The notes beneath the pieces are model-generated. The model worked only from the letters and a program-made list of their open reading frames with translations, was not told where the DNA came from and made no database searches. From a virus (lineage: Duplodnaviria > Caudoviricetes): a DNA stretch of 61,254 nucleotides. The DNA is taken from positions 1-61,254 of the IMG/VR virus record IMGVR_UViG_3300023440_000007, one strand, 5' to 3'. Positions 5,845 to 43,634 of the stretch are shown piece after piece; position 1 is the first letter of the stretch, and every line of letters starts with the position of its first letter. Made by a program: the position numbers and the translations under genes.

Positions 5845-6730
5845 TCAGAATATTTCCATAAAGGATTTTATGAACTCTACTGCGACCTGCGGCACGATCG
5901 CGTTCCCATAGGCGCGCAGTCGTCCCACTCGGTTGGGTATCCCATGAGCCAGCGGGAATGAGCCGGGTTCAATACGTCTCGCTTTTCCGTCTCTGCACCA
6001 TACGAGTTCGTACTCGTCCCAGAAACCAGAGTTACTTGCATACTTAGGGGTTTCCCTCTTCTTTGTTTCCAGCGTCTCTGATTGAATTCGTCCGATGCCT
6101 TCTCGCTTTTGTAGTCTCTTGCCGTTGGCGTCGCCCAACCGCTCAGATCTATTAAATGAACTATGTCTTCTACTGACCATTGTCTCTTCTTTTTGCTTAG
6201 ATCCCTCTTCCTGCCTGTTTCTGTAGCGCAGGGAGTCGGCCACCCACCAAAGCCTTTGTCGGATGTGCGGCGCGCCGACGCTCGCAGCGCAGATATCTGC
6301 GGTCCCGACGGCATATCCCATCTTTTCCAAGTCAGAGCGTACTCTAGAGCCATACCCTTCCATCCTTCGAAGCAACCTGCTCTCCAAACACCGTTGGAGG
6401 TTTGCACTCAAGTATGATCTGTTTCCATACCGGCCATAGATGCCTTGGGTCTTTCTCAGCTTGTCGCTTCCCTGCGGCCGAGAACGGCTGACAAGGACAT
6501 GATCCTGTCCATACTTTCTTTCCTTCAGGCCATCCAGCAATTTCAAGCGCATAGGCCCATCCTCCTATCCCAGCAAAGAAGTGGCATTGAACATAATCAT
6601 CAAGAGCTCCAACATCTATGTCTTCTATACTCCTATTGTCTATATATCCTTCTTGTATGAGCCCTTCCTTCATCAAATTCTCAAGCCATCTACACACATA
6701 CGGATCATTGTCATTGTAATACGCAGCCAT
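5845..6730 (-). pseudogene. C5-cytosine DNA methyltransferase (two-polypeptide, overlapping-frame type) broken by a 2-nt frameshift at ~6347
   Basis: Motif I FFAGIGG, IV SCPCQPFS and VI EQV in 6344..6730; VIII HIRQRLW and [11 protein letters not shown] in 5845..6552; motif IX-like [13 protein letters not shown] in overlapping frame 5877..6407. Confidence 0.8.
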
Positions 6731-6876
6731 TGTTCAATGTCTAATCCCAATGATTACTCATTGCGTACATATTAGCCATAAATTCTCAGACTTGAGGAAA
6801 TATCTTATAGAAGAGTCTAGCACTTGAGCAATTGTATATGGAGTAAACAGTATAGGCTGGAGTCTCAGGTATATAG

Positions 6877-7002
6877 TCTCAGATCCAAGGATTCAATTCT
6901 CAAGCCTAATCTCAGATCCAAAATTTGTGTGATGGAATTTTTGTATTCTTAGTATGTGGAGTTCAATGAGTAGAGTTCTTGGTGTCAAGATCTCAGATCC
7001 AA
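6877..7002 (+). repeat. Three direct copies of TCTCAGATCCAA
   Basis: Copies at 6877, 6910 and 6991, just before the compositional switch at 7030. Confidence 0.8.
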
Positions 7003-7232
7003 AAATTTCATGAGGGGATTTTTGGGTGACCCAGGGTGTGCCAGTGCGCGCAATGCGCGCATAACCCGCCCCCCGTACCACCTATAGGCGCATAGGCCAT
7101 TGCTGCGCCTACAAGCCGCGTACACGCGCACTAGGCATTGTGCAGTACCTAGTACCGCACCAGGCCACAACGCGCACCACGCGCGCTTGTAGGGGCGTTG
7201 TGGCCATACCTAGCAGGCATGGTACAGGCACA

Positions 7233-7265
7233 ACAAAACCCCCGCGCCTACATGGTGCGGGGGCT
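7233..7265 (-). terminator. Intrinsic terminator of the 7362-7793 gene
   Basis: AAAA-CCCCCGCGCC-TACAT-GGTGCGGGGG hairpin, U-tract on the minus strand. Confidence 0.7.
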
Positions 7266-7361
7266 TGGTTTGGGTTTGGCCCGCTTACTTATGCGGGCCG
7301 GTTTGCCTTACCACTAGGCGCGCACGCCACCTAGTGGCAAGGGGCGCGCAGCATGCTAGCG

Positions 7362-7793
7362 TTACTTGTTGTAACGCTTAGCAAGCGCAGCATACACCGC
7401 GCGCGCCGCCGCTATAGTAGCGGCCAAGCTGGGCGCGGGCATACCGGGCTTGCACGCAGGCGCGTGCTTGGCCACCAGTTTAGTGGCCGCAGCAACATGC
7501 TGCGGGGCCACAAACACGGCATGGCCATGCTTGTGGTACCAGCTAAACTGGTGCCGCACGCCTGCGGCACGCCAGGCACCCTGCATAGTGGCCATAGTAG
7601 CACCGCTATGCTGCGCCAACAAACGCCCCTTTAACTGGGCGCCTGCGGCACGGTAAGGGTACCCCGGGCAAGCGCACACAACACAGTGTGCGCCCGCCTT
7701 GGGCGCTTGGGCGCTTGGCACGCCAGGCCAGGCCGCCGCAGCGGCCATAGTGGCGTAAAAAGCGCCAGGCGTGGTAGGTGCCTGCATGGGCAC
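7362..7793 (-). CDS. Early-island protein with no Asp or Glu (143 aa, Ala-rich, basic)
   Basis: GCAAGGGGG RBS shared with the neighbouring cassettes, own terminator downstream, TAA stop; no D or E in the translation. Confidence 0.7.
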   Translation of the reverse strand: MPMQAPTTPGAFYATMAAAAAWPGVPSAQAPKAGAHCVVCACPGYPYRAAGAQLKGRLLAQHSGATMATMQGAWRAAGVRHQFSWYHKHGHAVFVAPQHVAAATKLVAKHAPACKPGMPAPSLAATIAAARAVYAALAKRYNK

Positions 7794-7970
7794 AACCCCC
7801 TTGCCAATTAGTGCGCGCCGCCCCGCACCAGGCCTGGCCGCCCCGCGCGGCCAGTAAGTACACTACCACAACTACGCGCGCGTAGGCGCGCAATGTTTGC
7901 ATACCAGCCATGCAACAAACGCATACCACCTGCGGGTGTAACACACGAAAACGCAATACAACCCACAGTT

Positions 7971-8083
7971 GCACAACCACAGGTTGTGCGCCACACAACC
8001 AAAACACGTGCATACTTGCATAGGTTTGCAAGTATGCAAATGCGTCTCTCACAACTTGCGTATGTGCATAGGTTTGCAAGTAA
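7971..8083. repeat. Cluster of inverted and direct repeats
   Basis: GCACAACC-ACA-GGTTGTGC; TGCATACTTGCA-TAGGTT-TGCAAGTATGCA; GCATAGGTTTGCAAGTA twice. Confidence 0.7.
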
Positions 8084-8431
8084 GCAAGCGTGCAAGTGGG
8101 CGCAGACGCGCCGTTGACCCGACGCTTGTGTGACCGCTGGATGATTTGGACCTAGTGTGAACACTGGATGACTGAGCGCTTGTGAACTCGCTGGACGGTT
8201 CTCTCTTCTACGCTGAAGATGCCGTGAGTGAAGAGTTCCTCCTCTTCATCATCAAAGAAGATGAAGAGACATGAAGAACTCGTCTTCATCTTCTTTGATG
8301 AAGAACTCACGCACTGGAGTTAGGGTCAAATTTTTTGACAATGAACTTGTGATTCCGCTGGATGATTTGGATCAATATATATGACTAAGAGCTTGTGACT
8401 CTGCTGGATCATCTTCTTTGATACTGTACGG

Positions 8432-8464
8432 CAAAAGGGTAGCGGACTGACTGCCCGCTACCCC
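8432..8464 (-). terminator. Intrinsic terminator
   Basis: CAAAA-GGGTAGCGG...CCGCTACCC. Confidence 0.75.
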
Positions 8465-8470
8465 TGCGGC

Positions 8471-8770
8471 TTAGGAGTCCAGCGCCGTAACCTGGTAAGT
8501 CACAGGCGGCTGAGCGTACTGCCTAACCTGTTCGAGCGTGAGCTCCTTGCCACGCAAGTTGGGCGGCAGGTTAAGCGGAATCTCCGTAACCTTGGTGGCA
8601 AGCGCTGCCAAGTGCAGCGGGAGGACGCCAATAACGTGCTTACCGGCGATCTCCCTGGCAGGATCCGTCACGTGCATAATGCACGCAACGGTGCCCTGGT
8701 CGTCAATAAGCCCCAGCTCCTTAATGTACGAGAGCAGGGCCGGATGGCGTGTAACGATGACCTTTTCCAT
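8471..8770 (-). CDS. Csx16-like (Cas_VVA1548 family) protein; candidate anti-type III CRISPR ring nuclease
   Basis: VTRHPA...VIGVLPLHLAA...LNLPPNLRGKELT matches the Csx16 pattern SRHPGA...VIGTLPVHLAA...LDLP..LRG.ELS; no cas operon in the window. Confidence 0.75.
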   Translation of the reverse strand: MEKVIVTRHPALLSYIKELGLIDDQGTVACIMHVTDPAREIAGKHVIGVLPLHLAALATKVTEIPLNLPPNLRGKELTLEQVRQYAQPPVTYQVTALDS

Positions 8771-8778
8771 CTTTGTTA

Positions 8779-8849
8779 CCCCTTGCTAGTTGCTAGGCGG
8801 TATTGCCTAGTGTTTGCAGCGTAGTAGGGCAGACTGTCAAACGCAAATC
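8779..8849 (-). promoter_or_regulatory. Early cassette promoter, 5' hairpin and RBS
   Basis: GAT-TTGCGT-17 nt (GAcagTC)-TACGCT; hairpin CTAGGC/GCCTAG; CTAGCAAGGGG. Confidence 0.85.
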
Positions 8850-9116
8850 CAAAGTGCATCAGTCGAAAAGAAGATGCATCTGAGGAGGCATCATCAAACA
8901 GGAAGACGTGTCTGAGGAGGCATCATCATCTTTGAAAATGAGATCAGAGAAGCTGACTTGGGTCAAATTTTTTGATAGGACGCTTGTGAAATCGCTGGAT
9001 CAATTCGATTGACTGGGTCAATATATATGACTGAGGACTAGTGTGAGCGCTGGATCATCTTCACGGATGCTGGCGGGCAGCAGTAAGGGGGCCAGGATCC
9101 TGGCCCCCTTAGTGGC

Positions 9117-9365
9117 TTAAGCCGTAAAGCCGGTTTCGATCCCGCCCCCGTACTTACGGCAAAAAGCCACGATCCGCAGCTGCCGCTTGGGCATAACGGC
9201 AACCGCGCGGTTACCGAAGACCGTGTGGTTGTGGTAGGCCCACACGGCGTCGACGATCTGCTGCGGCTTAAAGCCAAGCAGCAGGCCGCGAACGAACGAT
9301 GACAGCGGCAGGGTAACGCCCTGCCAGCTGATCCAAGTACCATGCCTGGTAATTTCGATCTTCAT
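9117..9365 (-). CDS. Early cassette hypothetical protein
   Basis: 82 aa; shared promoter/RBS; terminator hairpin ~9086-9110. Confidence 0.8.
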   Translation of the reverse strand: MKIEITRHGTWISWQGVTLPLSSFVRGLLLGFKPQQIVDAVWAYHNHTVFGNRAVAVMPKRQLRIVAFCRKYGGGIETGFTA

Positions 9366-9373
9366 AGCATTTA

Positions 9374-9448
9374 CCCCTTGCTAGTTTTGGGCAGCACCAT
9401 TGCTGCCCATGTTGCCAGCATGGCAGGGTGGATTTTCCATTGCAAATC
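9374..9448 (-). promoter_or_regulatory. Early cassette promoter, 5' hairpin and RBS
   Basis: GAT-TTGCAA-17 nt (GAaaaTC)-CATGCT; CTAGCAAGGGG. Confidence 0.85.
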
Positions 9449-9776
9449 CTTTATGTATCCGTCAACAAAGAAGACAGCGCCTCAGACGCATCATAAGGAA
9501 GGAAGAAGTTAGAGTTGCATTCATCTTCTATGATGAAGATAACTCGAATAGGAGGCTGAATCATCTTTGAAGATGACATCATGCGAATTGAACAGACTCA
9601 AAATATCTGACTGTGAACTAATGATTCTATTGGATGATTTCGGTCAAATTGTATGAGAGAAGGCTAGTATGACTGCTGGATGATTTGGATCAACACATAT
9701 GAACTAGAGCTTATCCATTCGCTGGATGGTTTCCTCAAAAAGTGTTGGGGCCTACCTGGCCCCATAGTCAAGCCAA

Positions 9777-10325
9777 CTACTTGTTGGCGTAAATCGGCAA
9801 CTGCACGTTGCCGGGTCGTCTGTATTTGTACTGCGTTACGGCAGCCAGCATCCTGTAGGCGCAAGCCGTAACCTTAAGCGGGTCAGCGGCGGCAAGGCGG
9901 GCCGGTCCAACCAGGGCCTTGGCCAGCTCAATATGCTGCCGCTTAACCCAAATGGCGGCGGTCAAAGCAAGGCCGTCAATGCAAACGGCCACGTCGCCAA
10001 ACGGCTTGGCCCAATCAGGGGCCTGTCGTTCCGGGTTATTGTCTCCCCAAAACAGCGTAAGGCCGTCGTCCACGCTGGCAACATGCTGCAAAGCCGTGCT
10101 GTACAGCTTGCGCATGTCATCGTAGGGCAGGTCAAATGCCCCAAGCGCGTGGTCAATAACCTGCGTGGGCAGGTCGTAGGCATTGCCATACACCCACACA
10201 GGGTACAGGTCTTCCTGGCGGGCAATAATGGCAAAATCGCCAAACACGCCGCCGTAGCCGTCGTCGTCCCCGTTGGGCACGTACGCGGCCAAGTCATCGT
10301 ACAAGCTGGTTGTGTTGTTGGTCAT
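9777..10325 (-). CDS. Early cassette hypothetical protein
   Basis: 182 aa; shared promoter/RBS; terminator ~9737-9765. Confidence 0.85.
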   Translation of the reverse strand: MTNNTTSLYDDLAAYVPNGDDDGYGGVFGDFAIIARQEDLYPVWVYGNAYDLPTQVIDHALGAFDLPYDDMRKLYSTALQHVASVDDGLTLFWGDNNPERQAPDWAKPFGDVAVCIDGLALTAAIWVKRQHIELAKALVGPARLAAADPLKVTACAYRMLAAVTQYKYRRPGNVQLPIYANK

Positions 10326-10332
10326 CGCTAAA

Positions 10333-10402
10333 CCCCTTGCTAGTGCTGTGGCCCCATTGCCACAGTACCCACACTAATAGGGCTGATAATCAAACACAAA
10401 TC
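10333..10402 (-). promoter_or_regulatory. Early cassette promoter, 5' hairpin and RBS
   Basis: GAT-TTGTGT-17 nt (GAttaTC)-TAGTGT; CTAGCAAGGGG. Confidence 0.85.
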
Positions 10403-10686
10403 TAAAATGCATCTATCCCATTGGAAGATAACACGAAAAGGGCGTTGAATCTTCTTTGAAGAAGATGCCTCTATGCGTACCTCATCATCTTTGATGGGGA
10501 TGCTTATTCACACTTCATCTTCTTTGATGAAGATTTGGCGTCTAGTTTGTCTTGTTATAAGAGGATGAGCTTGTATGACCGCTGGATGATTTGGATCAAT
10601 ATATATGATAGGAAGCTTGTGATTCCGCTGGATGATTTGGATAGCCAAAAAGAAGGGGCAGGCTTTGATGCCTACCCCAAACAAGC

Positions 10687-11109
10687 CTAGATATACGGCC
10701 GACCATCCCCGCCTGGGCCTACCATGCCGTACAGCCCATTAGCGACGAAGGCGCAAGCCTTAGCCAACGACTTTTTGTTAACGGTGGAGCAGAACACCCT
10801 GCTGCCTACCTGGATAGTGCTGGAACACACCCTTACGCCACACAGATCTACATACCGTATGGCAAAACTAAAGTGCGCATGCGGAACTACGGCGAAGTAG
10901 CCCACATTGACCAACACCTTAAACCGCTGTATGACGTTCTCCACCTGCTGATACTCACCATTTACCAAATGCGTACCAGCAGTGAAGCGTTCCAGATCCG
11001 CCAGCTTTAGCCAGCCAACCCGACTGAGGACCTGGCACAAAACCGGCAGTTTGCTGGGATCGTCGCTGTGAGTAACCACGCACAGCGCATACAGGTTACG
11101 ATTTTCCAT
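10687..11109 (-). CDS. Early cassette hypothetical protein
   Basis: 140 aa; shared promoter/RBS; terminator ~10647-10678. Confidence 0.8.
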   Translation of the reverse strand: MENRNLYALCVVTHSDDPSKLPVLCQVLSRVGWLKLADLERFTAGTHLVNGEYQQVENVIQRFKVLVNVGYFAVVPHAHFSFAIRYVDLCGVRVCSSTIQVGSRVFCSTVNKKSLAKACAFVANGLYGMVGPGGDGRPYI

Positions 11110-11118
11110 AGTTTTTTA

Positions 11119-11187
11119 CCCCTTGCTAGTGTTATGGCACCATTGCCATAGTAACAGCCTAGTAGGGCTGAATATCAATAGCAAATC
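11119..11187 (-). promoter_or_regulatory. Early cassette promoter, 5' hairpin and RBS
   Basis: GAT-TTGCTA-17 nt (GAtatTC)-TAGGCT; CTAGCAAGGGG. Confidence 0.85.
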
Positions 11188-11347
11188 ATAAATACTTCAG
11201 TCAATTAAGACTCAAAGGCCGCTTCGAGTTATCTTCATCGTAGACGAAGAACAATACTCTACCGCAATCATCCACGTAGAAGAGACATACAGTCAAAAAG
11301 AAGGGGCGAGTTTTGATACTCACCCCAAGTTGCCTAGCAGGGGGAAG

Positions 11348-11458
11348 CTAGTACAGGAACTTGGCGGTAGCGATAATGCCCACGCCGAACACACCGCCAA
11401 GAATCAGAGACCCTATGGCTGCCAGGCCGAGGATAATTGCGGCTTCGAGCTTATGCAT
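11348..11458 (-). CDS. 36-aa membrane peptide (below the ORF-track cutoff)
   Basis: MHKLEAAIILGLAAIGSLILGGVFGVGIIATAKFLY; start overlaps the stop of 11451..11828; terminator ~11295-11326. Confidence 0.65.
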   Translation of the reverse strand: MHKLEAAIILGLAAIGSLILGGVFGVGIIATAKFLY

Positions 11459-11828
11459 GGTTTAACGCCTCCTTAGCGCGCTTGATGGTATCGCCGTACA
11501 GGGAGGCCAGCGCATTGTACAGCAGGAGCGACATGGCATAGTGCGGTTCCATGCCGATGCTGTGCGCTTGGCTGTGGACAGCCGCTGGCCACGAGCTGCT
11601 AAGCAGGTCGTCGACGCGCTGCACATCCCTGGGGTGAATGAACACAACCTTGCCTTCGTACAAGGCCGTGGTGCTGTCGAGCTCGTGGTCCCACACAGGC
11701 CCAAGGATTACACGGTGGGTGCATCCCGCAGCCTTGAGGTCGTCCACGGTTGCCTGCCCATCAGCCGCCAGGCGGTATGCCCGATAGACGGGCTGGGCAA
11801 GCTTCAGCATATCCTGAATGTCTTGCAT
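11451..11828 (-). CDS. Early cassette hypothetical protein
   Basis: 125 aa; shared promoter/RBS. Confidence 0.8.
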   Translation of the reverse strand: MQDIQDMLKLAQPVYRAYRLAADGQATVDDLKAAGCTHRVILGPVWDHELDSTTALYEGKVVFIHPRDVQRVDDLLSSSWPAAVHSQAHSIGMEPHYAMSLLLYNALASLYGDTIKRAKEALNHA

Positions 11829-11836
11829 TGCTTAAT

Positions 11837-11906
11837 CCCCTTTGCTAGTTGCATGGCTTGCTTGCCATGTTGCCAGCATGGCAAAGGTGATTATCAAACG
11901 CAAATC
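11837..11906 (-). promoter_or_regulatory. Early cassette promoter, 5' hairpin and RBS
   Basis: GAT-TTGCGT-17 nt (GAtaaTC)-CATGCT; CTAGCAAAGGGG. Confidence 0.85.
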
Positions 11907-12080
11907 TAAAGTGCGTCAGTCGCAGCGGAAGAGAAACCCTCGTGGCTGGTCGTCTTTGATGAGGATAACTCGAATAGCGGGTTGAATCATCTTTGAAGAG
12001 AAGCTGCGAGGCGGCATCGTCTTCTTGGATACCTCGAAACAAAAAGAACCCCGGCCTACCTGGCCGGGGATTTTGCTTGG

Positions 12081-12545
12081 CTACGTGCCAAGACGCCAGC
12101 CCAACAGCGCGCCGTAGACGGCGGCGGCAAGCTGGGCCGACGGAACCGTACCCTGCAGCGCACCAGCCAAGGACTGGGCGGCGCTGCGGTCCTGCTTGCG
12201 CGGGAACACGGCGCAGTAGTACATCAGTTCGTTAACCGCCGGGCCGTAGTCCTGCTCGAAGTTGGGCAGCAGGTTTTCCATTTCCCGCATGGCCAACACA
12301 AAGTCGTCTTTGTTGTTGGCCATAAAGCCGCGCAGGTTTGCCCAAGTATCCTGCACGCTTCCCGTGCTGCACTCAGCAAGCGCAGCAACAAAAGCGGCCA
12401 GGTCATCCGGCAACGGCTTAGCGGAAAACACCCAAACCGGGACCGGACCAACCTGCTGCATCAACTTAGGCCAGCCCGGCCAATCAGGGTGCATGTTGTC
12501 GTTACGCACCCTAAGGATTTCGCTGTAGTACTGGTAAGCATCCAT
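12081..12545 (-). CDS. Early cassette hypothetical protein
   Basis: 154 aa; shared promoter/RBS; terminator ~12041-12070. Confidence 0.85.
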   Translation of the reverse strand: MDAYQYYSEILRVRNDNMHPDWPGWPKLMQQVGPVPVWVFSAKPLPDDLAAFVAALAECSTGSVQDTWANLRGFMANNKDDFVLAMREMENLLPNFEQDYGPAVNELMYYCAVFPRKQDRSAAQSLAGALQGTVPSAQLAAAVYGALLGWRLGT

Positions 12546-12553
12546 TGGTTAAT

Positions 12554-12624
12554 CCCCTTGCTAGTTGCTAAGCACCATTGCTTAGTGTGCCCATGCTAGT
12601 AAGGGGGACTTTCAAAGGCAAATC
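12554..12624 (-). promoter_or_regulatory. Early cassette promoter, 5' hairpin and RBS
   Basis: GAT-TTGCCT-17 nt (GAaagTC)-TAGCAT; CTAGCAAGGGG. Confidence 0.85.
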
Positions 12625-13052
12625 CAAAGTGCATCAGTCAGGCCGGACTCAAAACAGCTCTGCTGGCTCATCTTTTGCGAGTCACAGCGCCATTCGAGTT
12701 ATCATCATCTATGATGAGGAACAGTACTCTGCTGCAATCATCAGTCCTGATTCATTAGCCTATTCGAGTTATCTTCATCGTAGACGAAGACAAGTGAGTG
12801 CAAATCTTCTTCGCTGAAGAGGATAACTCGAATAGCGGTTTGAATCATCTTTGATGAGGCAATCATCTTCATGATGATGAAATGCCTGGCAAGCTCATCT
12901 TATATGAGATAGAGCTTATGAATCCGCTGGATGATTTGGTCCTAGCGTGTGAACTAGAGCTTATGGATTTGCTGGATCAATTGGATAGACATATACCGTC
13001 AAAAAGATGGGCGGGGCATTGAGCCCCGCCCGATGGCCGCCTGGCAAGGGGT

Positions 13053-13601
13053 TCAGGCAGCCGCGTCGCTGGCCTGCTCGTTAACGAGCACCGGCACCGG
13101 CGGTGTGGACTCGGCCTTGGGCTTGGCCTCCTCCTTGGGCTTCTCCTTGGGCGTAATGGCGTCGACCAGGGCCTCATAAAAGCCCATGAACGCCTGCTTC
13201 CTAGCCGCCTCGAAGTTGGCCCGGAAGCTGGTAGCCTCGCCCTGGAACTTCTTGCGCCCCACCTTCAGCGCCCCGTCACTGCCGATGGACACGGCGTAAC
13301 GCTTGGCAAACTGAAGCGCCTTGCGCGTGTGGGTGGGATGGACCAGCGCCACGAAGCAGTTCTTGTAGTGCCAGGACAAGCCCCACCTGTCGCGCGGGAC
13401 GCTGCGCTTGCTGAACGCCTGGTTCAGCTCCCCCACGGTCTTGCCGGGGTTGTGGGTAATCACGTCCCACTTGACCGGGGCCGTGTCCCCACGGGGATTG
13501 TAACCCTCTCCCACCAGGGGGATGGCCACCGCGCAGCCCGCGTTGAGCATGCCACGGTAGCTGTTCTTCAACTCGCTGGCCTTGTAATAGGTATCACGCA
13601 T
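13053..13601 (-). CDS. Early cassette protein; possible DNA-binding domain related to the C-terminus of 42681..43400
   Basis: YNPRGDTA..KW....GKTVGEL....LSW....FVAL; AAGGAGG RBS; terminator ~13001-13031. Confidence 0.8.
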   Translation of the reverse strand: MRDTYYKASELKNSYRGMLNAGCAVAIPLVGEGYNPRGDTAPVKWDVITHNPGKTVGELNQAFSKRSVPRDRWGLSWHYKNCFVALVHPTHTRKALQFAKRYAVSIGSDGALKVGRKKFQGEATSFRANFEAARKQAFMGFYEALVDAITPKEKPKEEAKPKAESTPPVPVLVNEQASDAAA

Positions 13602-13657
13602 TGTTTCCTCCTTTGCTGCTAGATGCGCGGCACTAACTGCACCGCCCTATGGTTTGC

Positions 13658-13689
13658 AGCATGGCAGGGTTGATTGTCAGTTGCAAATC
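13658..13689 (-). promoter_or_regulatory. Early cassette promoter
   Basis: GAT-TTGCAA-17 nt (GAcaaTC)-CATGCT. Confidence 0.85.
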
Positions 13690-14327
13690 TAAAATGGCTG
13701 CATTTTTGTGAGGTGGGACGGCTCATCAACCTTGAGTCAAACCGCTATTCGAGTTATCTTCATCGTAGAGGAAGAACACAGCCCTATATATTATATAAAG
13801 TGCGCCAATTCGTCAAAGCTGAGTCATTGGCCTATTCGAGTTATCCTCATCAAAGAGGACTCAAAGCCCTATTCGAGTTATCTTCTTCAATGAAGAACGT
13901 ACTCGTTTTGTTTCGGATCATCTTTTTTGATGATACCGCATCCTCATCATGATGAGGATCTATGGGAATGACACCCGACATTACGCTAGAGTATGAGCTT
14001 GCATATGAGCTGGATTGATTCAAAATATCTTCATTTTGAAGATGAACATGACGGTTTTTTGTCATTTTTCGGATTCACAAACTTCATCCAGCTAAGTCAT
14101 TGTAAAACAACAAAACACGATCGCGTGTCTCAAGCGGGGCAGACGTCGTTTTTGGACCGTGTTTCATCTTCATCCATGACGCTTTTGAATCATAAAATCT
14201 TCCTCATGAAGAAGACATTCCACACTTGAACCGGAATCCATGGAATGATGCCAGAGGTTTTGTATGAAAGTGAGCTAATATGACCGCTGGATGAGCCTGT
14301 ACACTCCCATACTTTAGACCCAAAAAA

Positions 14328-14365
14328 GACTTGCATGTGAAATTCCACCATGTAAGGGTTATAAT
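14328..14365 (+). promoter_or_regulatory. Divergent promoter of the same class
   Basis: GAC-TTGCAT-17 nt (GAaatTC)-AAGGGT, immediately followed by TATAAT. Confidence 0.65.
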
Positions 14366-14367
14366 GC

Positions 14368-14735
14368 TGGCGCGGCATATGCGTCAGGGCCTAAAAGTCA
14401 ATGGTTCCATAGGAGTAACCATTGGCAGGACGACAGGGGTTATGCCCGGCCATAGAGAGCCTAGGGGGCCAGACGGGAGCGGTACTTGCCTTTGAGCAAG
14501 CAGCGCACGTCGCAGGGTAGCGGAAGCCTACAGCGAGGCGCACAACGTGGTCTGCGCCGGTAGAGCTGGATATGACCGCTAAGGAAAATTCCCTGGGTGG
14601 AATTCCCAGGGCCAGGGGCTGAGTAGCTGATATAGTGAAACCCCTGCGAGGACTGCGGAATACTCTGGTTTTACTCGGTATGCAGCAAGCCGGACGGTGT
14701 GATGAGCTGTAGGGATACAACCGCCCTGAAGGTCA
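14368..14735 (+). ncRNA. Candidate structured RNA (~360 nt)
   Basis: GC-rich, no credible + ORF; closing TCAGGGC/GCCCTGA; hairpins CAATGGTT/AACCATTG, CCCTGGG/CCCAGGG, GCGCA/TGCGC. Confidence 0.45.
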
Positions 14736-14854
14736 GAAAAACCTCCTCTTACCATGCAACTTGACAGGGGGTACTGAGTGCTGGCGTGATGCGGTACTGT
14801 AAGTATCCCCTTGCTTTATCCATTTATGGACCAACCAGTAGAGGACGTGATGAA

Positions 14855-19646: not shown

Positions 19647-20660
19647 ATGAGACCAAGTGATGCCAAGGAAGTCCTCAAGGCCATGTTCCGCATGAGGCGT
19701 CCGATCCTGCTGTCCGGGATGCCCGGCGTCGGCAAGACATCCATTGTCGTGCAGGCGTGTGAGAGCATCGGCATGAAGTATGTTCTGTTCCACCCGGCAG
19801 TCAGCGAGCCGACTGACTTCAAGGGCTATCCGTTCGTTGTGGATGGCCAGGCGCTGTTCCTGCCGTTCGGGGATCTTAAGATCCTGCTGGACGCGCAGGA
19901 GCCGATTGTGGCGTTTATGGACGACTTCGGACAGGGACCCGCTTCCACTCAGGCTGCCATCATGCAGCTGCTTGGGAGCCGACGGCTGAACGATCACGTT
20001 ATCAGCGACAACGTGACGTTCGTACTCGCCACCAATCGCAAGCAGGACAAGGCCAATGTGAGAGGCATCCTGGAGCCGGTGAAGTCCAGATGCATCACCA
20101 TCATCGAAGTGACGCCCAATCTGGACGATTGGTGTGAATGGATGATCAAGAACAACAAGTCTCCAGAGGTCGTCGCGTTTATCCGCTGGAGGCCTGAGTT
20201 CTTGGAGAAGTTCAAGCCCACCAACGACATGACCAATTCTCCATGTCCGCGCACGTTGGCGAACGCGGCGGACTTGGTCGCAAATCCGGACATCCCGAGG
20301 AACTGCTTGTTCGAAGTCCTCGCTGGCGCTGCCGGTGAGGCCTTCGCAGCGGAATTCACGGGATTTCTGAAGGTCTATCAGAACTTGCCGGATCTGGACA
20401 AGATGCTTCTGATGCCGGACCAGGCGCATATTCCCACTGACGAGGTCGGCGTGTTGTATGCCATCGCCGTCGGCTTGGGAGTGAGGGCTAACAAGAGGAA
20501 CTTCAAGAATTACACGAAGCTCCTCAGCAAGATGCCTGACGAGATGGCCGTCACATCCATCAGGACTGCCGTTTCCAAGACTCCTGACTTGGTTGAAACC
20601 AAGGAATACATGGAGGGATGGGGAAGGCAGTTCGCTGAGAAGATGTACTCTGACGACTGA
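19647..20660 (+). CDS. MoxR-like AAA+ ATPase
   Basis: Walker A GMPGVGKT, Walker B AFMDD, LATN sensor, SPCPR; AGGAGG RBS. Confidence 0.9.
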   Translation: MRPSDAKEVLKAMFRMRRPILLSGMPGVGKTSIVVQACESIGMKYVLFHPAVSEPTDFKGYPFVVDGQALFLPFGDLKILLDAQEPIVAFMDDFGQGPASTQAAIMQLLGSRRLNDHVISDNVTFVLATNRKQDKANVRGILEPVKSRCITIIEVTPNLDDWCEWMIKNNKSPEVVAFIRWRPEFLEKFKPTNDMTNSPCPRTLANAADLVANPDIPRNCLFEVLAGAAGEAFAAEFTGFLKVYQNLPDLDKMLLMPDQAHIPTDEVGVLYAIAVGLGVRANKRNFKNYTKLLSKMPDEMAVTSIRTAVSKTPDLVETKEYMEGWGRQFAEKMYSDD

Positions 20661-20744
20661 CATCTCGCTACAGCGCAGGGGAGCCAGCCAGTCTGGCTCC
20701 CTCACGGTGCAGCGAGAATGCGCCGAACAGAAAAGGAGGTAACA

Positions 20745-21572
20745 ATGACCAGTATTTCAGAGAAAGCGATGCTGTCCAGGTTTCGTGCGACGGGCTGGAG
20801 AGCCAGCAAGGCTGACAGAAGCGTGAGCGATGAGGTCGCCGAGAGCAAGAAGGCAGAGCGGACGGCTGGGAAGTATTACAAGAAGTTGATCCGCTGTGTC
20901 GCCATCGACGACTTCAATCGCACCGTAGCGTCTGCCAGAGCGTATCACAACAAGGTGACGCTGCCGTGGCTCGACTCGGACTTCCGGATCTTGCCGAACA
21001 AGTTCCATATGGAACATGTCCAGCAGATGGCGAAGTTCCGTGAGGAGTGCATGGAGCACGTCGAGCACTTCTGCCAGTTGTACGAGCTCTCCAAGAACGA
21101 TGCCAAGAAACGTCTTGGGGAGTTGTTCAACGAGCAGGACTATCCGCCCATCGAAGACCTGAAGGCCAAGTTCACCTTCACGGTGAGCTACATGCCGATC
21201 CCAGAGGTCGGGGACTGGCGTGTCGAGGACAGCCTGAAGGCTGAGACGGAGAAGATGCTGCTCGAAGCTCAGAACGAGGCTGTGAGAGACCTGCTTCGCA
21301 GACTCCACAGTCGCGTCGAGAAGCTTCACGAGAGGCTGTCGGATCCTACGGCATCGTTCAGGAACTCTCTGCTCGACAAGGTCAAAGGGCTTGTGGAAGT
21401 CATTCCGGACATGAACGTCATCGACAATGCTGACGTCAGGACGTTCACGGAAGAGGTCCGCAAGCACCTGTGCTCCGTGCATCCTGACGACCTCCGCAAC
21501 GACCTCGTGAAGAGGCAGAAGGTCTCTGACGCTGTGTCTGAGATCCTGGAGCGTATGAAGGGATACGTATAA
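20745..21572 (+). CDS. DUF3150-like phage protein
   Basis: TLPW....RILP...LGELFN..DYP; lies between the AAA and vWA genes; AAGGAGG RBS before ATG 20745. Confidence 0.7.
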   Translation: MTSISEKAMLSRFRATGWRASKADRSVSDEVAESKKAERTAGKYYKKLIRCVAIDDFNRTVASARAYHNKVTLPWLDSDFRILPNKFHMEHVQQMAKFREECMEHVEHFCQLYELSKNDAKKRLGELFNEQDYPPIEDLKAKFTFTVSYMPIPEVGDWRVEDSLKAETEKMLLEAQNEAVRDLLRRLHSRVEKLHERLSDPTASFRNSLLDKVKGLVEVIPDMNVIDNADVRTFTEEVRKHLCSVHPDDLRNDLVKRQKVSDAVSEILERMKGYV

Positions 21573-21599
21573 AAAGCAGCTCGAAATCCTGTATAGCTA

Positions 21600-21640
21600 T
21601 GGGGGGAGTCATATATGACTCCCCCTAGTCTCTTTTATTT
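21600..21640 (+). terminator. Intrinsic terminator
   Basis: GGGGGAGTCATA-TATGACTCCCCC followed by a U-rich tract. Confidence 0.7.
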
Positions 21641-21651
21641 GGATATTCGTT

Positions 21652-21867
21652 ATGCGATTTAATCAGACACTGAGACCCATGAGGAAGAGAATTCTCCTAA
21701 AAGACAGTGACGCTCCCCGTCTTCTAGTATATTCGTTTGATTGGTTTGCATCTAAAGACGGAGGAGATGAGGACGGATCAGATGAATTCTGGCATCAGAT
21801 ATATAGGAGAATGTCGTTCTGTAGAGCAGAAGTTCAACCCAATAGAAAACGGATAAAGAAGAAATGA
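21652..21867 (+). CDS. EG-x2-YW paralog (insertion variant)
   Basis: SFDWFASKDGGDEDGSDEFWHQI. Confidence 0.6.
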   Translation: MRFNQTLRPMRKRILLKDSDAPRLLVYSFDWFASKDGGDEDGSDEFWHQIYRRMSFCRAEVQPNRKRIKKK

Positions 21868-22094
21868 GAAAAAAGCTTCTATTAAGATATAGTGAAGCTG
21901 GAATATTATTGATACGCGCCTTCCATTGGCGTTTATCTAGAGATGGAGGAGTCCCATATCTATCAGACCTATATTGGTACTTAGTCCATAAAAGGATTAT
22001 GGGAAGCAATGCGGAAGTCAGAAGTAGGACCAAATCCGTCTACAATAAGAATAAAAAGGATCACATTACTGAATACCGTAAGATGCATCATTAA
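21864..22094 (+). CDS. EG-x2-YW paralog (insertion variant)
   Basis: AFHWRLSRDGGVPYLSDLYWYLV. Confidence 0.6.
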   Translation: MRKKLLLRYSEAGILLIRAFHWRLSRDGGVPYLSDLYWYLVHKRIMGSNAEVRSRTKSVYNKNKKDHITEYRKMHH

Positions 22095-22195
22095 GACATA
22101 CTGCGACTTCTCAAAAATAGACCATAGATGATAGACTATAACGAATAATTCGTTAGCTCATTACAGAGCATCCATAACCAGAAAAGGAGGTTGAA

Positions 22196-23476
22196 ATGAC
22201 CGCTCAACCTGGAAACGTGATCCAAGTGACCGTGATCAGCGAGGAAGAGAAGAACCGACTGGAGAAGCGTGCTGAGGAGCTCATCTCCAAAGCAAAGACG
22301 AAGGTCGTTCTAGACCATCCGGAATTCTCCATTTTCATTCTGACGTCGAAAATGGAACCGGATTGGTCCTTCCCAACGCTGGCGACTGATGGACAGTGGA
22401 TCAAGTATAATCCACACTTCATCTGCCAGTTCAAGGTGAAGCACATCAAGACTTTCTTGATGCATGAGTGCCTGCACATCATGATGCTTCACGCTTCCAG
22501 GCGTAGGAACAGACCCCATGTGAAGTGGAACATGGCCTGTGACTATGCGATCAATGCCCTGCTGGTCCAGTCCAAACAGGACTTCGGCATGAAACCTGGA
22601 GAATTCCTGTACGGCAAGGAATTCGAAGGAATGTCTGCCGAGGACATCTATGCCAAAATCCCCGATCCGCCTGAGAGGGAAGGTGGAAATGGGGATGGTG
22701 AATGTGAGGGCCAAGACAAGACTGGGAAGTCCAATGCTGGACACGGTCATACGAATGCAGGCGGATGCACCTGCACCATCCTGGATCCCAGGAATCCTGA
22801 TGGCTCTAAGATGACTGAGTCTCAAATCAAAGAGCTTGAGTCTCAGGTAAAGATCGCCGTCGCACAGTCTGAGGCGATTGCGAAGCAGTGCGGCAGAGAT
22901 CCTCTTGGAGTCAAAAGGATCCTGAAGGCCATCGAGGCTCCGGTTGTAGACTGGCGAACCCTGCTGGCTAATCTTGCGACAGAGATCGCCCACGACGACT
23001 ACACGTGGACCAAGGCTAATAGGAGATACGTCTATTCCGGCGCATTTCTACCGAGCCTTGAGAATCGCGAAGTCGGTCACATCGCATTCGTGATCGACAC
23101 GTCTGGATCGGTGTCTGACAAGGAAGTCAGCAAGGCTGCGGCAGCAGCGGAGGACATGTTCAATATCATCAATCCAAGCAGGATTGAGGTAATGTATGTG
23201 GACTATTCGCTGCACGGCATCCAGAATCTCGATGCCTCTGACCTTCCCTTCAAGCTTGAGATCAAGGGAGGGGGAGGGACGAGCTTCCGTCCTGCGTTCG
23301 AGCATATTAGCAAGAACGAGGACGACGAGCCTGTCGCATTGGTCTACGTGACCGATGGGTATTGTCGAGACTTCCCGAAGGAGGAGCCGGATTATCCAGT
23401 AATCTGGCTGCTTATCGGGGATTACGACAGGCGGTTCACTGCACCGTTCGGAGACGTTGTAAGAACAGACGAATAA
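22196..23476 (+). CDS. DUF2201-type metallopeptidase-like / vWA domain protein
   Basis: TLATDG, HECLH (HExxH), N.ACDYAIN, DTSGS MIDAS, GGGGTSF, VTDG. Confidence 0.9.
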   Translation: MTAQPGNVIQVTVISEEEKNRLEKRAEELISKAKTKVVLDHPEFSIFILTSKMEPDWSFPTLATDGQWIKYNPHFICQFKVKHIKTFLMHECLHIMMLHASRRRNRPHVKWNMACDYAINALLVQSKQDFGMKPGEFLYGKEFEGMSAEDIYAKIPDPPEREGGNGDGECEGQDKTGKSNAGHGHTNAGGCTCTILDPRNPDGSKMTESQIKELESQVKIAVAQSEAIAKQCGRDPLGVKRILKAIEAPVVDWRTLLANLATEIAHDDYTWTKANRRYVYSGAFLPSLENREVGHIAFVIDTSGSVSDKEVSKAAAAAEDMFNIINPSRIEVMYVDYSLHGIQNLDASDLPFKLEIKGGGGTSFRPAFEHISKNEDDEPVALVYVTDGYCRDFPKEEPDYPVIWLLIGDYDRRFTAPFGDVVRTDE

Positions 23477-27860: not shown

Positions 27861-27990
27861 CGTGGAGTAAGCAACCCCCTTGCTAGCTCTGCTTTGGAGG
27901 AGATGGAGGGCAACCCTGGGGATCATCCAGTCCAACCTGTCCGGTTGATCCTTGTCATCACTACTCCATCTCCTCCAGCTTTTTCATTTA
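27861..27990 (+). ncRNA. Candidate sRNA with a C-rich loop complementary to the early-cassette RBS
   Basis: 5' hairpin AGCAA-CCCCC-TTGCT; 3' stem GGAGGAGATGGAG/CTCCATCTCCTCC followed by a U-tract; promoter upstream. Confidence 0.65.
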
Positions 27991-27999
27991 GGAAATAAT

Positions 28000-29290
28000 C
28001 AATCTATTCAGTCTTTCAGATAACGGTTCCGTGAACAGGATCAGCTCTAAGACACCCAAAATATGGACTGATCGTCCATCAGCGATAAGGATCCTGTTCG
28101 AACGAGATGATCTCCGTCATGATTGGCGGGGATCTTTTTGTTCCTCCTACGGAGATTCTCAAATGTAGGAGACGGTTGACATAGCCTGACCGATGTTCCA
28201 TTAGGAACCGAGCCAGATTCGGCCATTTAGCTCTGCGGGGCGGTGCGCCGATGGGGGGCTGAGACAGGCATAAGGAGGCTGTCTCTATAGTTTCCATTAT
28301 AGAGACGGGAAAGTGACGAGGTGAAAAAGACTCAGGCATCATTGGTAGTGATGACCGTTTAGGGTTGCCTATGTTGCTCCCGTCGGTGGTTCTATGCGCA
28401 ACGTAGAGGCTAGACGGCCTGTAATCGTCTACAGCTCTTATAGAGCCAATTGCTGGTAGTTGTTACCAGCAGAGACCCTTGTAGGAGCCATAGACGATCA
28501 TACGACCATCTAGTAGAATTTTCTATGGCTGCCGCAGAAGTCGCTTCTATAGAGTGCGTATAGACCAGTGGATCTTGCGTAAAAGGTGACCGGCCGACCT
28601 ACCTAATCCCGCTGACTGTGTGTTAGATCGTGAGATATAAGTCGCATGTCTTTGCTTAGAGCTCAGAGACATGTTCCATCCTCTAGCCGCATCCTTCCTC
28701 CGGGGTACGGCTACGATGGTTAGGATGAAGTTCTCACCGTCTAGCTGGCAGCGTGGAGCTCTTCAATTCATCCATCACGGGTTGGGATCCTGATGGAGTG
28801 AATGAATCTACACGAGAAGATCAGCGGGTTGCATATCCCTACGGCGCTAATGTCAGTCAATCCCCTTAGCATTAGCTGTTTGATCCATCATCTAGGGTTC
28901 TTTGAATATTCCGGTATTGAACTGGATACTGATACTGGAGTATGAACCTTAGATGATGGATTGAATACTCTACTCCCTGGTAGGGGGTGGAGTGTGCTAA
29001 TGAGGGGGAGAGAGAAGTCATGAATCTACCACGAAATTAGCACACGACTAGAAATGGAGGGGGTGGGTGGCGGGTAAAGAATAACCGCTACTCGTAGAGT
29101 AGGAGAAGTCCTGCTCGTAGAGTAGGCCGCTAGGTAGGACCATACCTGTAAACAACATCTACGCTTGGGATTGGAGGCGTCTGGAAGGAGTGTGTCTAGA
29201 GAATGAAATGAATCTATGACTCAAGCCGTATTCAATTGAGTGGAATATATTTCTTAAGCTGTAAGAATCAGTCTCATGCGTTCAATGGGA
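28000..29290. ncRNA. ~1.3 kb hairpin-rich non-coding region; candidate large structured RNA(s)
   Basis: No credible ORF; long stems, e.g. 28883-28900 pairs with 28944-28961, and 28861-28876 with ~28996-29010. Confidence 0.45.
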
Positions 29291-29299
29291 TACTAGAAT

Positions 29300-29530
29300 A
29301 TGTGGGGAATACATAAAACCATGATGAAGATGGAGAAGATAGGGAATAAGATCTATTTCTATAGGAACAAGTATCTACCTGATTTGGAAGATCAGTTGGC
29401 CCTATATAGAATATTGAGGATTAATGTGAAGGCTCTACGTAATTCAAGAGAGCGGCAGGCATACTGGGAATATGTGATGTACTCTATTGAGACGTATAAA
29501 TCATATGAACGGCCTGGTTTGGACAGATGA
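29300..29530 (+). CDS. EG-x2-YW paralog family protein
   Basis: LRNSRERQAYWEYV. Confidence 0.7.
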   Translation: MWGIHKTMMKMEKIGNKIYFYRNKYLPDLEDQLALYRILRINVKALRNSRERQAYWEYVMYSIETYKSYERPGLDR

Positions 29531-40690: not shown

Positions 40691-41245
40691 ATGTCAGTTA
40701 TGTCAGACACATGGATAAAAGACATGGTTATTAAGCACGATATGATCACGCCATTCATTGACCATCTTGTTAAAGATGGCTGTATATCGTATGGATTATC
40801 ATCGTATGGATATGATGTAAGAGTATCAAATCACTTCAAAATCTTCACTGACGTTGATTCTGTAATCGTCGATCCAAAAAAGTTTTCCGATAAGAGTTTC
40901 GTGAATAGGACATTGGAGGAGTGTATAATTCCTCCAAACAGCTTCGTCTTAGCGACTACGGTAGAATGGTTCAAGATACCGAGAGATGTGATGGCATTCT
41001 GCGTGGGCAAGTCTACATACGCAAGAATAGGCATCTCTGTCGGCTGTACCCCATTAGAGCCCGAATGGTCAGGACAGATAACTCTGGAATTGGCTAATAC
41101 CACACCGATTCCAGCAAAGGTCTATGCCAATGAGGGGATCGCACAAGTTATCTTCTTTAAGGCTGACAAGGAATGTTCTGTGTCCTATAAGGATCGTAAA
41201 GGGAAGTACATGAACCAGATAGGAGTAACTCCAGCAAAGATATAG
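40691..41245 (+). CDS. dcd: dCTP deaminase
   Basis: [43 protein letters not shown]. Confidence 0.95.
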
Positions 41246-41249
41246 GACG

Positions 41250-41531
41250 ATGCTGAACCCAAAATCAAAGACCGTAGTTGTTCATGTTAAGGACAATCAT
41301 CCAGATGCCGTCTACATAGGCAGAGGCAGCAAATGGGGAAATCCTTTCAGGATAGGAAAGGATGGAACTAGGATGGAAGTCATAAGAAAGTATGAATTAT
41401 GGATAAGAACTCAGCCTCACCTCCTGTCAAGCGTGTGTGAATTGAAGGGGAAGAAACTGGCCTGTTTCTGCGCTCCAAAGCCTTGTCACGGGGACGTTCT
41501 GATAAAGCTCATAGAGGAGCAGGGAATATGA
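41250..41531 (+). CDS. DUF4326 family protein
   Basis: YIGRGSKWGNPF...LKGK.LACFCAP..CHGDVL. Confidence 0.9.
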   Translation: MLNPKSKTVVVHVKDNHPDAVYIGRGSKWGNPFRIGKDGTRMEVIRKYELWIRTQPHLLSSVCELKGKKLACFCAPKPCHGDVLIKLIEEQGI

Positions 41532-41603
41532 AATAGATTCAAAAATGATTTGCTTATCAAGGCCGGTTATGTAATGGTAATGGCCTTCTTAGAGGGGAGA
41601 ACG

Positions 41604-42158
41604 ATGATGCAAATCGAATGGAATGGAGCTATAGAGAACTGGACTAAGAAGTTTATAAGCAAGAACCTATGGAGATTCGAGGGATCATATGAGTTTGATG
41701 ACCTAATGCAGGACTGCTTTATAAAATTCATGTTCTGCAGAGACAAATACAAAGATACTGCTGAAAACATGGCTCATTTCATGAGCCTATACAAAAGAGC
41801 GGTAGTAAATCATTTTCATGACAAGGCTAATGAGACTACCAATCATAGACATTCTGATATAGAGGAAGTGCAAAACTATGCGGCTTCCTCTATATGTTTT
41901 AACAATCTAGGATTCTTGTTGGTTCTTATAAAAGAAGCGCCCAAAGAGGTACAAACAGTTATAGAGACAATGATATTGGAAGGGAACAGCGGTAAGCTGA
42001 GGAGACCATTCAGGAAAACGTATGGGAAGCGTTCCAAGATCTCTGGGAAGATCGTGCGCATAAGAGAGACAACCGACGAGTTCCTGTCTAGGGTCATGGA
42101 CATCCCAGAGCTTGAAGAGAATTTAAGAGAGAGGGTAAGAGAGTATCTATTGAAATGA
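41604..42158 (+). CDS. Sigma-factor-like protein (region 2)
   Basis: YEFDDLMQDCFIKF...F...YKRAVVNHFHD resembles sigma region 2. Confidence 0.55.
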   Translation: MMQIEWNGAIENWTKKFISKNLWRFEGSYEFDDLMQDCFIKFMFCRDKYKDTAENMAHFMSLYKRAVVNHFHDKANETTNHRHSDIEEVQNYAASSICFNNLGFLLVLIKEAPKEVQTVIETMILEGNSGKLRRPFRKTYGKRSKISGKIVRIRETTDEFLSRVMDIPELEENLRERVREYLLK

Positions 42159-42697
42159 GACATAGCCTAGCCTTTGTCAGCAAAGTCGAGCGCGATATCA
42201 CTCGTGCTACTGGGATAAGAAGGGCTCCTTCATATAAAAACTTGTTCAGATGGAGAGTGGCCCTGCTAGAAGCTGTCGCTGAATTGCCTGAGAAAGAGTG
42301 GCGGCTTCTCTCTGAAGACACGAAGAAATGGTATGTTGAAGCATGTCAAGCTCTTAAGAATAAGCAGAAGCTTCCACCGTTTCCAGATGAAGATGAAATA
42401 GAGATCAAAAGAAGACAAGCATATGGAAGCGCATATGAAAAGAAGCACAAGAACTTTAAGATAAACTACAAGGGAGCAGGATATAGGGCAAAGGAGATAA
42501 TGATAAAAGAGGGTATGTATTTTCCTCTTATGAAACTTCATAAGAGGCTTCAAGAAGAGGGATACATATACTCTCCTAGGACTCTGCAGATCGTTATTGC
42601 GGAGTTTAGATCAGCGGTTAGAGTCCTACAAGATCATGGACTTCTTAAGTGTGAACTGAATTGGGACAGAAGGAAAAAACATGAAGAGCAAGATTGA
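42155..42697 (+). CDS. Hypothetical protein; N-terminal motif paralogous to 42681..43400
   Basis: AVAELPEKEWRLLSEDTKKW vs AAASLSDDDWEQLSSPAQEW. Confidence 0.75.
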   Translation: MRHSLAFVSKVERDITRATGIRRAPSYKNLFRWRVALLEAVAELPEKEWRLLSEDTKKWYVEACQALKNKQKLPPFPDEDEIEIKRRQAYGSAYEKKHKNFKINYKGAGYRAKEIMIKEGMYFPLMKLHKRLQEEGYIYSPRTLQIVIAEFRSAVRVLQDHGLLKCELNWDRRKKHEEQD

Positions 42698-43400: not shown

Positions 43401-43465
43401 GTCTGTATGAAGTAGGGTCTCCGTGCAGCTATCAACTGCACGGAGACTTTTTATAGGAGACACTG

Positions 43466-43633: not shown

Positions 43634-43634
43634 T

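Follow-up and report, generated by a model that had tools for sequence, protein, structure and literature searches.

Phased TC/GA palindromes in a seven-cassette island of a phage genome: possible operator-like sites for a symmetric protein

Dam GATC clusters in regulatory regions are read by methylation-sensitive proteins, as in the Mu mom/OxyR, pap/Lrp and agn43/OxyR systems; in phage SPO1, TF1 sites are found at early promoters. Global operator sets include the KorB operators on RK2 and the omega heptad arrays on pSM19035. The locus described here resembles each of these in part. It lies in the IMG/VR virus record IMGVR_UViG_3300023440_000007 (Duplodnaviria; Caudoviricetes), a linear record of 61254 bp which is estimated to be about 61% complete; the entire record was analysed and is called the window below. 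Within an island of seven small gene cassettes, the spacers contain a palindrome in which TC and GA steps recur at fixed spacing, TCNTCNTCNNNGANGANGA, that is, TCNTCNTC-N3-GANGANGA. These elements are proposed, at a rough probability of 0.42, to be duplex operator-like sites for a symmetric protein, with the T of their TC steps probably modified.

Phages that hypermodify thymidine are best known for evading restriction; regulatory use of the modification and its exact contexts are largely open. Conversion of 5-hydroxymethyldeoxyuridine (5-hmdU) takes place in sequence-specific contexts (excerpts of PMC8989533 and PMC5889632). Resistant restriction sites in M6, ViI and phiW-14 share TG/TC (excerpt of PMC6449724), and dapT is found mostly at TG and less at TC (excerpt of PMC13458397). 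In the excerpts of these papers, the modification context is inferred only from restriction patterns.

Geometry and placement of the palindromes

Nine exact matches to the pattern occur in the window, starting at 8246, 8286, 9521, 10515, 11232, 12702, 12772, 12805 and 13757, with central triplets aaa, ttt, tat, ttt, gta, tat, gta, gct and gta in that order. Starts and triplets agree with a preliminary description made from the sequence alone; 100 dinucleotide-preserving shuffles of the window contain no exact copy. When as many as two mismatches are tolerated, the count rises to 43, compared with an expectation of 4.6 (10 in the richest shuffle) and with overlapping registers of one site treated separately; 35 are within 8204-14182 and 8 outside. 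Of the 17 copies of the 13-bp core TCNTC-N3-GANGA in the window, 16 are within spacers at 8100-14330. A spacer-only control (eight spacers, 3204 bp, rich in TC/GA; 500 dinucleotide-preserving shuffles) yields 0.08 cores and 0.00 full motifs, compared with the observed 16 and 9. The excess over shuffled sequence holds against both backgrounds.

The conserved positions have dyad symmetry at fixed spacing: the inverted N3 arrangement is enriched and the everted form, GANGA-N3-TCNTC, is absent from the spacers. TCTC is depleted there (3 vs 14.8). The autocorrelation of TC with TC in the spacers is 4.85-fold at lag 3 and 0.23 at lag 2; in the rest of the genome it is 1.0 at lag 3. Spacing-6 and spacing-9 counts (27 and 12) represent the same sites read one or two triplets out, from longer triplet runs, and a minor class of three copies has a 2-bp centre. 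Neighbouring sites are 33-40 bp apart, or at other values, and follow no single helical phase.

The TC and GA bases are kept, as described earlier; the N positions were then taken to vary freely, but 103 of 126 spacer pentamers have A or T there. TCATC and TCTTC reach 17.2 and 15.0 per kb in the spacers versus 3.4 and 6.7 elsewhere, and TCCTC and TCGTC are not enriched; the unit is better written TCWTC/GAWGA. All nine exact copies are located between open reading frames (ORFs) with a clear coding signature, which confirms their placement in non-coding spacers. A role as coding sequence is ruled out, as copies 33-40 bp apart fall in different frames and occur in both orientations.

The spacers separate the following small gene cassettes.

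8471-8770, minus strand: cassette g7
9117-9365, minus strand: cassette g6
9777-10325, minus strand: cassette g5
10687-11109, minus strand: cassette g4
11451-11828, minus strand: cassette g3
12081-12545, minus strand: cassette g2
13053-13601, minus strand: cassette g1

All seven (82-182 aa) have a clear coding signature, with G+C of 0.64-0.87 at third codon positions versus 0.37-0.46 at second positions. Most units share one order on the minus strand: a G+C-rich terminator hairpin with a T run, M1 repeats, one to seven palindromes, predicted promoter, leader, Shine-Dalgarno sequence and start codon. The palindromes are found in all seven cassette spacers, in modules placed after one cassette's terminator and ahead of the promoter predicted for the following cassette. 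A predicted promoter block, read by eye, precedes every cassette (-35 cTGAtGC, 17-18 bp, -10 GAtAaT); relative to the predicted starts, site centres fall at -72.5 to -77 in four of the seven promoters and at -100 to -111.5 in five. A terminator scan recovers minus-strand terminator-like hairpins after five cassettes (g1, g2, the g3 cassette, g4 and g5); the terminator after g7 was read by eye and none was identified after g6. All seven leaders are 54-65 nt long, free of TC/GA and equipped with the Shine-Dalgarno sequence CAAGGGG. From the host-type promoters and the layout, the cassettes are probably expressed early.

The conserved leaders lie at 8771-8832, 9366-9431, 10326-10385, 11110-11170, 11829-11889, 12546-12607 and 13602-13672; each has a 7-8-bp hairpin (loop aatgg) just before aCTAGCAAGGGG and the start codon. 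The g7 protein (99 aa) matches PF09652 (Cas_VVA1548, putative CRISPR-associated; E 3.8e-18). The other six cassette proteins match no family in Pfam or PHROG.

The palindromic sites, about two dozen in all, are distributed over the island as follows.

8246-8264: perfect site TCATCATC-aaa-GAAGATGA, within a longer (TCN)6...(GAN)4 run at 8237-8267
8286-8304: perfect site TCATCTTC-ttt-GATGAAGA
9521-9576: composite module of the perfect site 9521-9539, TAACTCGAA plus linker, and the short site TCATC-ttt-GAAGATGA at 9561-9576
10450-10533: three sites, one short (10450-10465), one with one mismatch (10482-10500) and one perfect (10515-10533)
11223-11283: TTCGAGTTA, then the perfect site 11232-11250, plus a spacer-6 site at 11268-11283
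11950-11999: composite module of site 11950-11965, TAACTCGAA plus linker, and site 11987-11999
12693-12880: five sites, perfect at 12702, 12772 and 12805, short at 12845, and a spacer-2 site at 12863-12880
13748-14215: densest array, perfect at 13757, followed by 13844, 13881, 13918, 13941, 14028 and 14198

The array at 12693-12880 has three TTCGAGTTA flanks, two on the plus strand and one on the minus strand. The densest array sits between cassette g1 and a divergent plus-strand promoter; its site 13941 is a perfect 8+2+8 palindrome. Partial copies reported earlier near 8923 and 10482 (one mismatch each), 11947/11950, 13844 and 13881 are recovered; the one at 12845 is a short core. In 8870-8935, upstream of g7, two copies of a 32-bp direct repeat, GAAGAyGyrTCTGAGGAGGCATCATCA, take the place of the usual module, and the sites within it are degenerate or have a 6-bp centre.

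The M1 repeats accompany the sites.

8110-14294, plus strand: M1, a 46-bp tandem repeat GCTTGTGAnnnCGCTGGATGATTTGGATCAATATATATGA, usually in two or three copies downstream of a cassette terminator

Copies of M1 are found at 8110-8195, 8323-8418, 8960-9064, 9595-9727, 10547-10642, 12892-12986 and 14260-14294, and none was found in the spacers 11110-11336 and 11829-12080. Each copy contains a GATGA pentamer. Some resemble an FNR-type box (TTGAT-N4-ATCAT) with TATATA about 30 bp later, a likeness which is not conserved across copies. Considered as a sigma-70, FNR-type or MotA-type promoter, M1 has half-sites, read by eye, that are not conserved from copy to copy.

The sites are not independent of one another; they are parts of repeated modules of about 55 bp. 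The unit TCATC-AAA-GnTGA-TTCAAaCCgCTA-TTCGAGTTA-TCtTCATC-nnn-GAnGAAGA has nine copies, six on the plus strand and three on the minus strand. The TTCGAGTTA element occurs nine times in the window, every one in the island and abutting a site; it stands beside six of the nine perfect copies, and the earlier report of this flank in either orientation is correct. When the nine modules are aligned, the TC/GA columns of the left arm and of the inner pentamers are invariant, and the N and centre columns rank with the most variable ones. The region is present in contigs from two DNA runs of one microbial-mat study. A strain in the second sample, represented by one low-depth contig, differs by six substitutions over 7.5 kb. 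Two of these fall in site 11950-11965, at 11952 and 11955, which are N and centre positions, so that TC/GA is kept; the changes at 11980-11981 fall in the adjoining linker. These changes agree with TC/GA conservation, in a very small sample of two in-site changes from one contig.

The modules may also be read as parts of recombination modules for the gain, loss and shuffling of cassettes, in which the palindromes have little function of their own. A role of this kind has been suggested for PeSL (promoter-early stem-loop) motifs in T4-like phages (excerpt of PMC4122927). It would account for units of about 55 bp that occur in both orientations and in tandem and that flank orphan genes, each with a putative promoter and terminator of its own; Atlas searches with the proteins of two of these genes, g1 and g5, returned no usable match. 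Homology alone would suffice for recombination, yet the TC/GA columns are invariant while the N columns drift, and it would not explain why TC/GA is excluded elsewhere in the island. Recombination is unlikely as the main role of the sites, although recombination and regulatory roles can coexist.

The arms of the palindrome can pair, TC with GA, and the sites at 8286, 9521 and 10515 hold perfect 6-8-bp stems in a register shifted by three bases. This is what would be seen in hairpins or cruciforms in single-stranded DNA or RNA, such as REP-like or attC-like elements, N4-type hairpin promoters or RNA processing sites. Pairing is not selected, however: complementary bases stand at the N positions in 9 of 25 cases, the fraction expected by chance being 0.35, and the outer bases of the central triplet pair in one of 16 sites. 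Predicted DNA hairpins have energies of -2.0 to -5.5 kcal/mol and are weaker than those of a perfect palindrome (-5.6 to -8.9 kcal/mol). A whole-window Rfam scan at the gathering threshold finds two tRNAs only, and a permissive Rfam search of 6800-14800 gives three weak matches, all far below gathering. Since TC/GA is kept and pairing is not, the sites are likely to be recognised as double helix, which argues against REP-like, attC-like and N4-type hairpins; a hairpin function is very improbable.

Exclusion of TC/GA and candidate modification genes

The dinucleotide from which the sites are built is excluded from the DNA next to them, as the preliminary description had noted for one neighbouring stretch.

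7028-7947, both strands: TC/GA-free stretch of 919 bp, 0 observed versus about 104 expected

Among the ten strand-symmetric dinucleotide classes, only TC/GA has an extreme gap (919 vs about 54). The seven cassette leaders fall in TC/GA-free gaps of 50-69 bp each. Cassette coding sequences contain 238 TC/GA steps versus 365.6 expected; in the rest of the genome, the dinucleotide is about 1.3-fold enriched. The coding strand of g5 has no TC and 31 GA, which is a one-strand version of the ban. Its product is an Asp-rich protein of 182 aa (19 D) without relatives.

The ban is symmetric over both strands and this points to a property of duplex DNA, not of RNA. Its breadth exceeds what avoidance of a single restriction site would produce; restriction-type palindromes with TC/GA are avoided no differently from others (6-mer median 0.88 vs 0.87). 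An ORF of 141 aa at 7362-7787 (minus strand) lies inside the TC/GA-free stretch, with a Shine-Dalgarno-like AAGGGGG upstream, and encodes no Asp or Glu. It is doubtful that this ORF is coding, because its G+C content is flat over codon positions (0.67/0.61/0.67).

A candidate base-modification cluster is located directly upstream of the PolA gene.

40691-46412, plus strand: candidate base-modification cluster
40691-41245, plus strand: dCTP-deaminase-like (PF22769, 9.5e-33)
43635-44549, plus strand: 5-hmdU DNA kinase helical-domain protein (PF18723, 2.2e-45)
44546-45364, plus strand: DNA glycosyltransferase-like, TAGT (PF20691, 3.2e-07; phrog_842, 2.2e-36)
45351-46412, plus strand: thymidylate-synthase-like (phrog_5131, 2.1e-115)

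By its gene content, this cluster appears to be of the thymidine-hypermodification type and encodes a candidate pathway; the same gene association is described for thymidine-hypermodifying phages by Lee et al. (excerpt of PMC5889632). TET/JBP is absent. A search of PDB sequences with the PF18723 protein returned no related structure. Given the published TG/TC contexts and the modification-type genes, the guess that the banned dinucleotide is the modification context has an independent basis.

The same facts may be explained without any specific reader. The sites would then be clusters of modification targets at which dense bulky or charged thymine adducts alter the stiffness, charge or accessibility of DNA; they could serve as boundaries or shields (e.g. 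against translocating nucleases or read-through) around an unmodified early island. In favour of this, nothing but TC/GA is conserved in the sites, the DNA around them lacks it, modification-type genes are present, and no reader protein was found among the ORFs scanned. The strict inverted symmetry, the fixed 3-bp centre and the lack of everted or direct arrangements are, in contrast, what a symmetric reader needs, and a preference for A/T at N likewise speaks for recognition. Clusters without a reader are an improbable explanation.

Weighing of the operator reading

In the proposed operator reading, the elements TCNTC(NTC)-N3-GANGA(NGA) would be two inverted TCWTC/GAWGA pentamers, often one triplet longer, and the modules of about 55 bp would form the upstream regulatory region of each cassette promoter. 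A dyad-symmetric protein (a dimer or higher oligomer, encoded by phage or host) would bind the sites and co-control the cassette promoters. The TC step would be the one at which the phage hypermodifies thymine, so that a full site would carry three modified T per strand at mirror positions, and such bases would be kept out of the leaders, the adjacent 919 bp and a large part of the coding DNA. Such sites would let packaged, modified DNA be told from newly made DNA. We infer the binding, the regulator, the promoter start sites and the modification context from sequence. If the sites are operators, the odds lean towards their TC steps carrying modified thymine.

A bolder form of this proposal treats the modification context as a cis-regulatory alphabet. 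TC would be purged from DNA that must stay unmodified (the 919 bp, all leaders and one whole coding strand) and re-introduced only as mirror-symmetric triplets phased at 3 bp; a dimeric reader would sense the pattern of six modified bases, separate parental from replicated DNA and thereby time the cassette genes. This form is doubtful.

The preliminary description had already proposed a symmetric dimeric reader of modified-base geometry. The duplex dyad site (9 of 25 pairs), the exclusion of the dinucleotide next door and the hypermodification-type genes uphold part of that proposal. The reader itself is another matter: the 47 ORFs scanned offer no DNA-binding candidate, and the A/T preference at N fits a plain sequence reader.

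Several observations weigh against the proposed operators and their modification. Firstly, no helix-turn-helix, ribbon-helix-helix or HU-type Pfam match is found in those 47 ORFs of the roughly 61% complete record, and PF00216 (HU family) is absent from a whole-window scan. As the record is incomplete, the reader protein may lie outside it or be encoded by the host. Secondly, a reader of plain TCWTC/GAWGA sequence without modification fits equally well, because the N positions prefer A/T. Thirdly, no kinase P-loop was found for the putative modification pathway: the PF18723 protein lacks a Walker A motif, the window contains no homologue of gp13, the P-loop partner in YuA, and none of the six ORFs with a Walker A motif is a small kinase. 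The contexts in the published excerpts favour TG over TC, and TG/CA is not avoided inside the TC/GA-free stretch, where its observed/expected ratio is 1.4-1.5. Phage YuA, with a homologue at about 30% identity, has neither a dinucleotide-free island nor arrays. Fourthly, a consensus scan recovers one of the seven predicted promoters, and the fixed distances between sites and promoters may reflect duplication of one ancestral unit and not functional constraint. Finally, no related array is found elsewhere in the collections searched, so that the sites are without cross-species conservation.

These searches covered several collections. Near and distant DNA searches of a phage collection gave no match to the window, and IMG/VR searches with cassette protein g1 and with the flank-plus-site pattern gave none either. 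The nearest PolA relatives in IMG/VR have 36-37% identity; three of these distant relatives contain only scattered copies of the 13-bp core (7 vs 7 in the control for a near-complete record; 6 vs 3 and 7 vs 2 for two fragmentary ones) and lack PF18723. One distant relative of the PF18723 protein has no sites. A metagenome scan produced eight single matches, none with an array; the four loci examined (L017, L019, L022 and L023) lie in unrelated coding DNA.

A further explanation is that the sites are injection-pause or stop signals, comparable to the region of repeats and palindromes in the first-step-transfer DNA of T5. The window encodes PolA, a DnaB-like helicase, a second helicase, a primase, an SbcCD-like pair, RecA-like and gp32-like proteins and a large terminase. 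Some of these (PolA, SbcCD-like, DnaB, primase) are loosely T5-like, and repeats and palindromes abound in the region, close to small uncharacterised genes. The T5-type array of DnaA boxes is nevertheless missing: boxes of the form TTWTNCACA (up to one mismatch) number 83 in the window versus 96.4 expected, and two of the nine TTCGAGTTA flanks are within one mismatch of a box. In addition, the sites are spread over seven spacers and 6 kb and do not form one untranslated block, and the linear, partial record does not define the genome ends. The injection checkpoint suggested at first is not supported by these counts and is very unlikely.

No description of such sites was found, in the course of work that included no dedicated literature search for the motif itself. 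The excerpts of four papers on thymidine hypermodification (PMC6449724, PMC13458397, PMC8989533 and PMC5889632) contain no mention of cis-elements built from the modification context. Repeated operators before a regulon are a known kind of element; the sites would be categorically new only if the modification reading is proven. What sets the locus apart is that one dinucleotide is both banned over long stretches and set in symmetric arrays before seven predicted promoters. If TC is modified, the island would be a natural instance of a virus using a modified base as a signal for transcription, and it would provide ready binding-site probes together with a control region devoid of modification. 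Without modification at TC, the sites would still be a new and unusually degenerate operator type for co-regulated orphan genes, probably early ones.

The record contains a number of other features. A C5-cytosine DNA methylase (PF00145, phrog_363) at 5845-6730 on the minus strand is split into overlapping ORFs (6344-6730 and 5845-6552), and the split may reflect a frameshift, pseudogene formation or recoding. The region 41550-43400 holds a sigma-factor-like ORF (weak Sigma70_r2 match, 0.0044) followed by two ORFs with paralogous-looking N-termini and no family matches, one of which has a long acidic linker. Both may end in helix-turn-helix-like segments and are possible regulators. Two stretches are poor in ORFs, 27950-29300 (about 1.3 kb) and 14380-14780 (about 0.4 kb), the latter downstream of a near-consensus promoter at 14337-14365. 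These may be structured RNAs; the whole-window Rfam scan at gathering threshold finds no family in either, and the permissive search included 14380-14780 and not 27950-29300. An ORF at 60668-61162 (minus strand) contains the N-terminal domain of a major tropism determinant (PF18454, 3.3e-15). At 19647-23476, a MoxR-like AAA ATPase is encoded about 1.5 kb upstream of a DUF2201 metallopeptidase/VWA protein.

Comparison with known systems

The stop region of T5 is likewise crowded with repeats, inverted repeats and palindromes beside the first-expressed small genes (excerpt of bioRxiv 10.1101/866236). Its defining feature is an array of eight DnaA boxes; in the present island such an array is absent and the sites are distributed between genes.

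PeSL regions share with the island a hyperplastic stretch of small orphan genes, each bordered by a conserved promoter/terminator motif (excerpt of PMC4122927). A repeated frame of promoter (predicted), leader hairpin and terminator is also present around the cassettes described here. PeSL consists of a promoter and a true stem-loop; in the island, the sites are additional to the predicted promoter and precede it, and their arms show no selection for pairing.

In SPO1, thymine is replaced, a block of small family-less genes is present, and the dimeric phage protein TF1 binds specific sites only in modified phage DNA (excerpt of PMC10531801). Unlike the putative situation at the present locus, every T is replaced in SPO1, so there is no dinucleotide context, and TF1 sites are not phased TC palindromes. 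SPO1 differs further in that no HU-family protein is encoded in the present window.

Dam GATC clusters resemble the arrays in having multiple short modification targets at fixed spacing upstream of a promoter, where binding reports the modification state. They consist of a 4-bp palindrome with a known enzyme, whereas the island would use a 2-bp step with a putative thymine adduct. The KorB and omega systems offer the parallel of one short symmetric or iterated site placed before many promoters of one replicon, which results in co-regulation. Their sites are conserved at every position; in the palindromes of this phage, conservation is confined to alternate dinucleotides.

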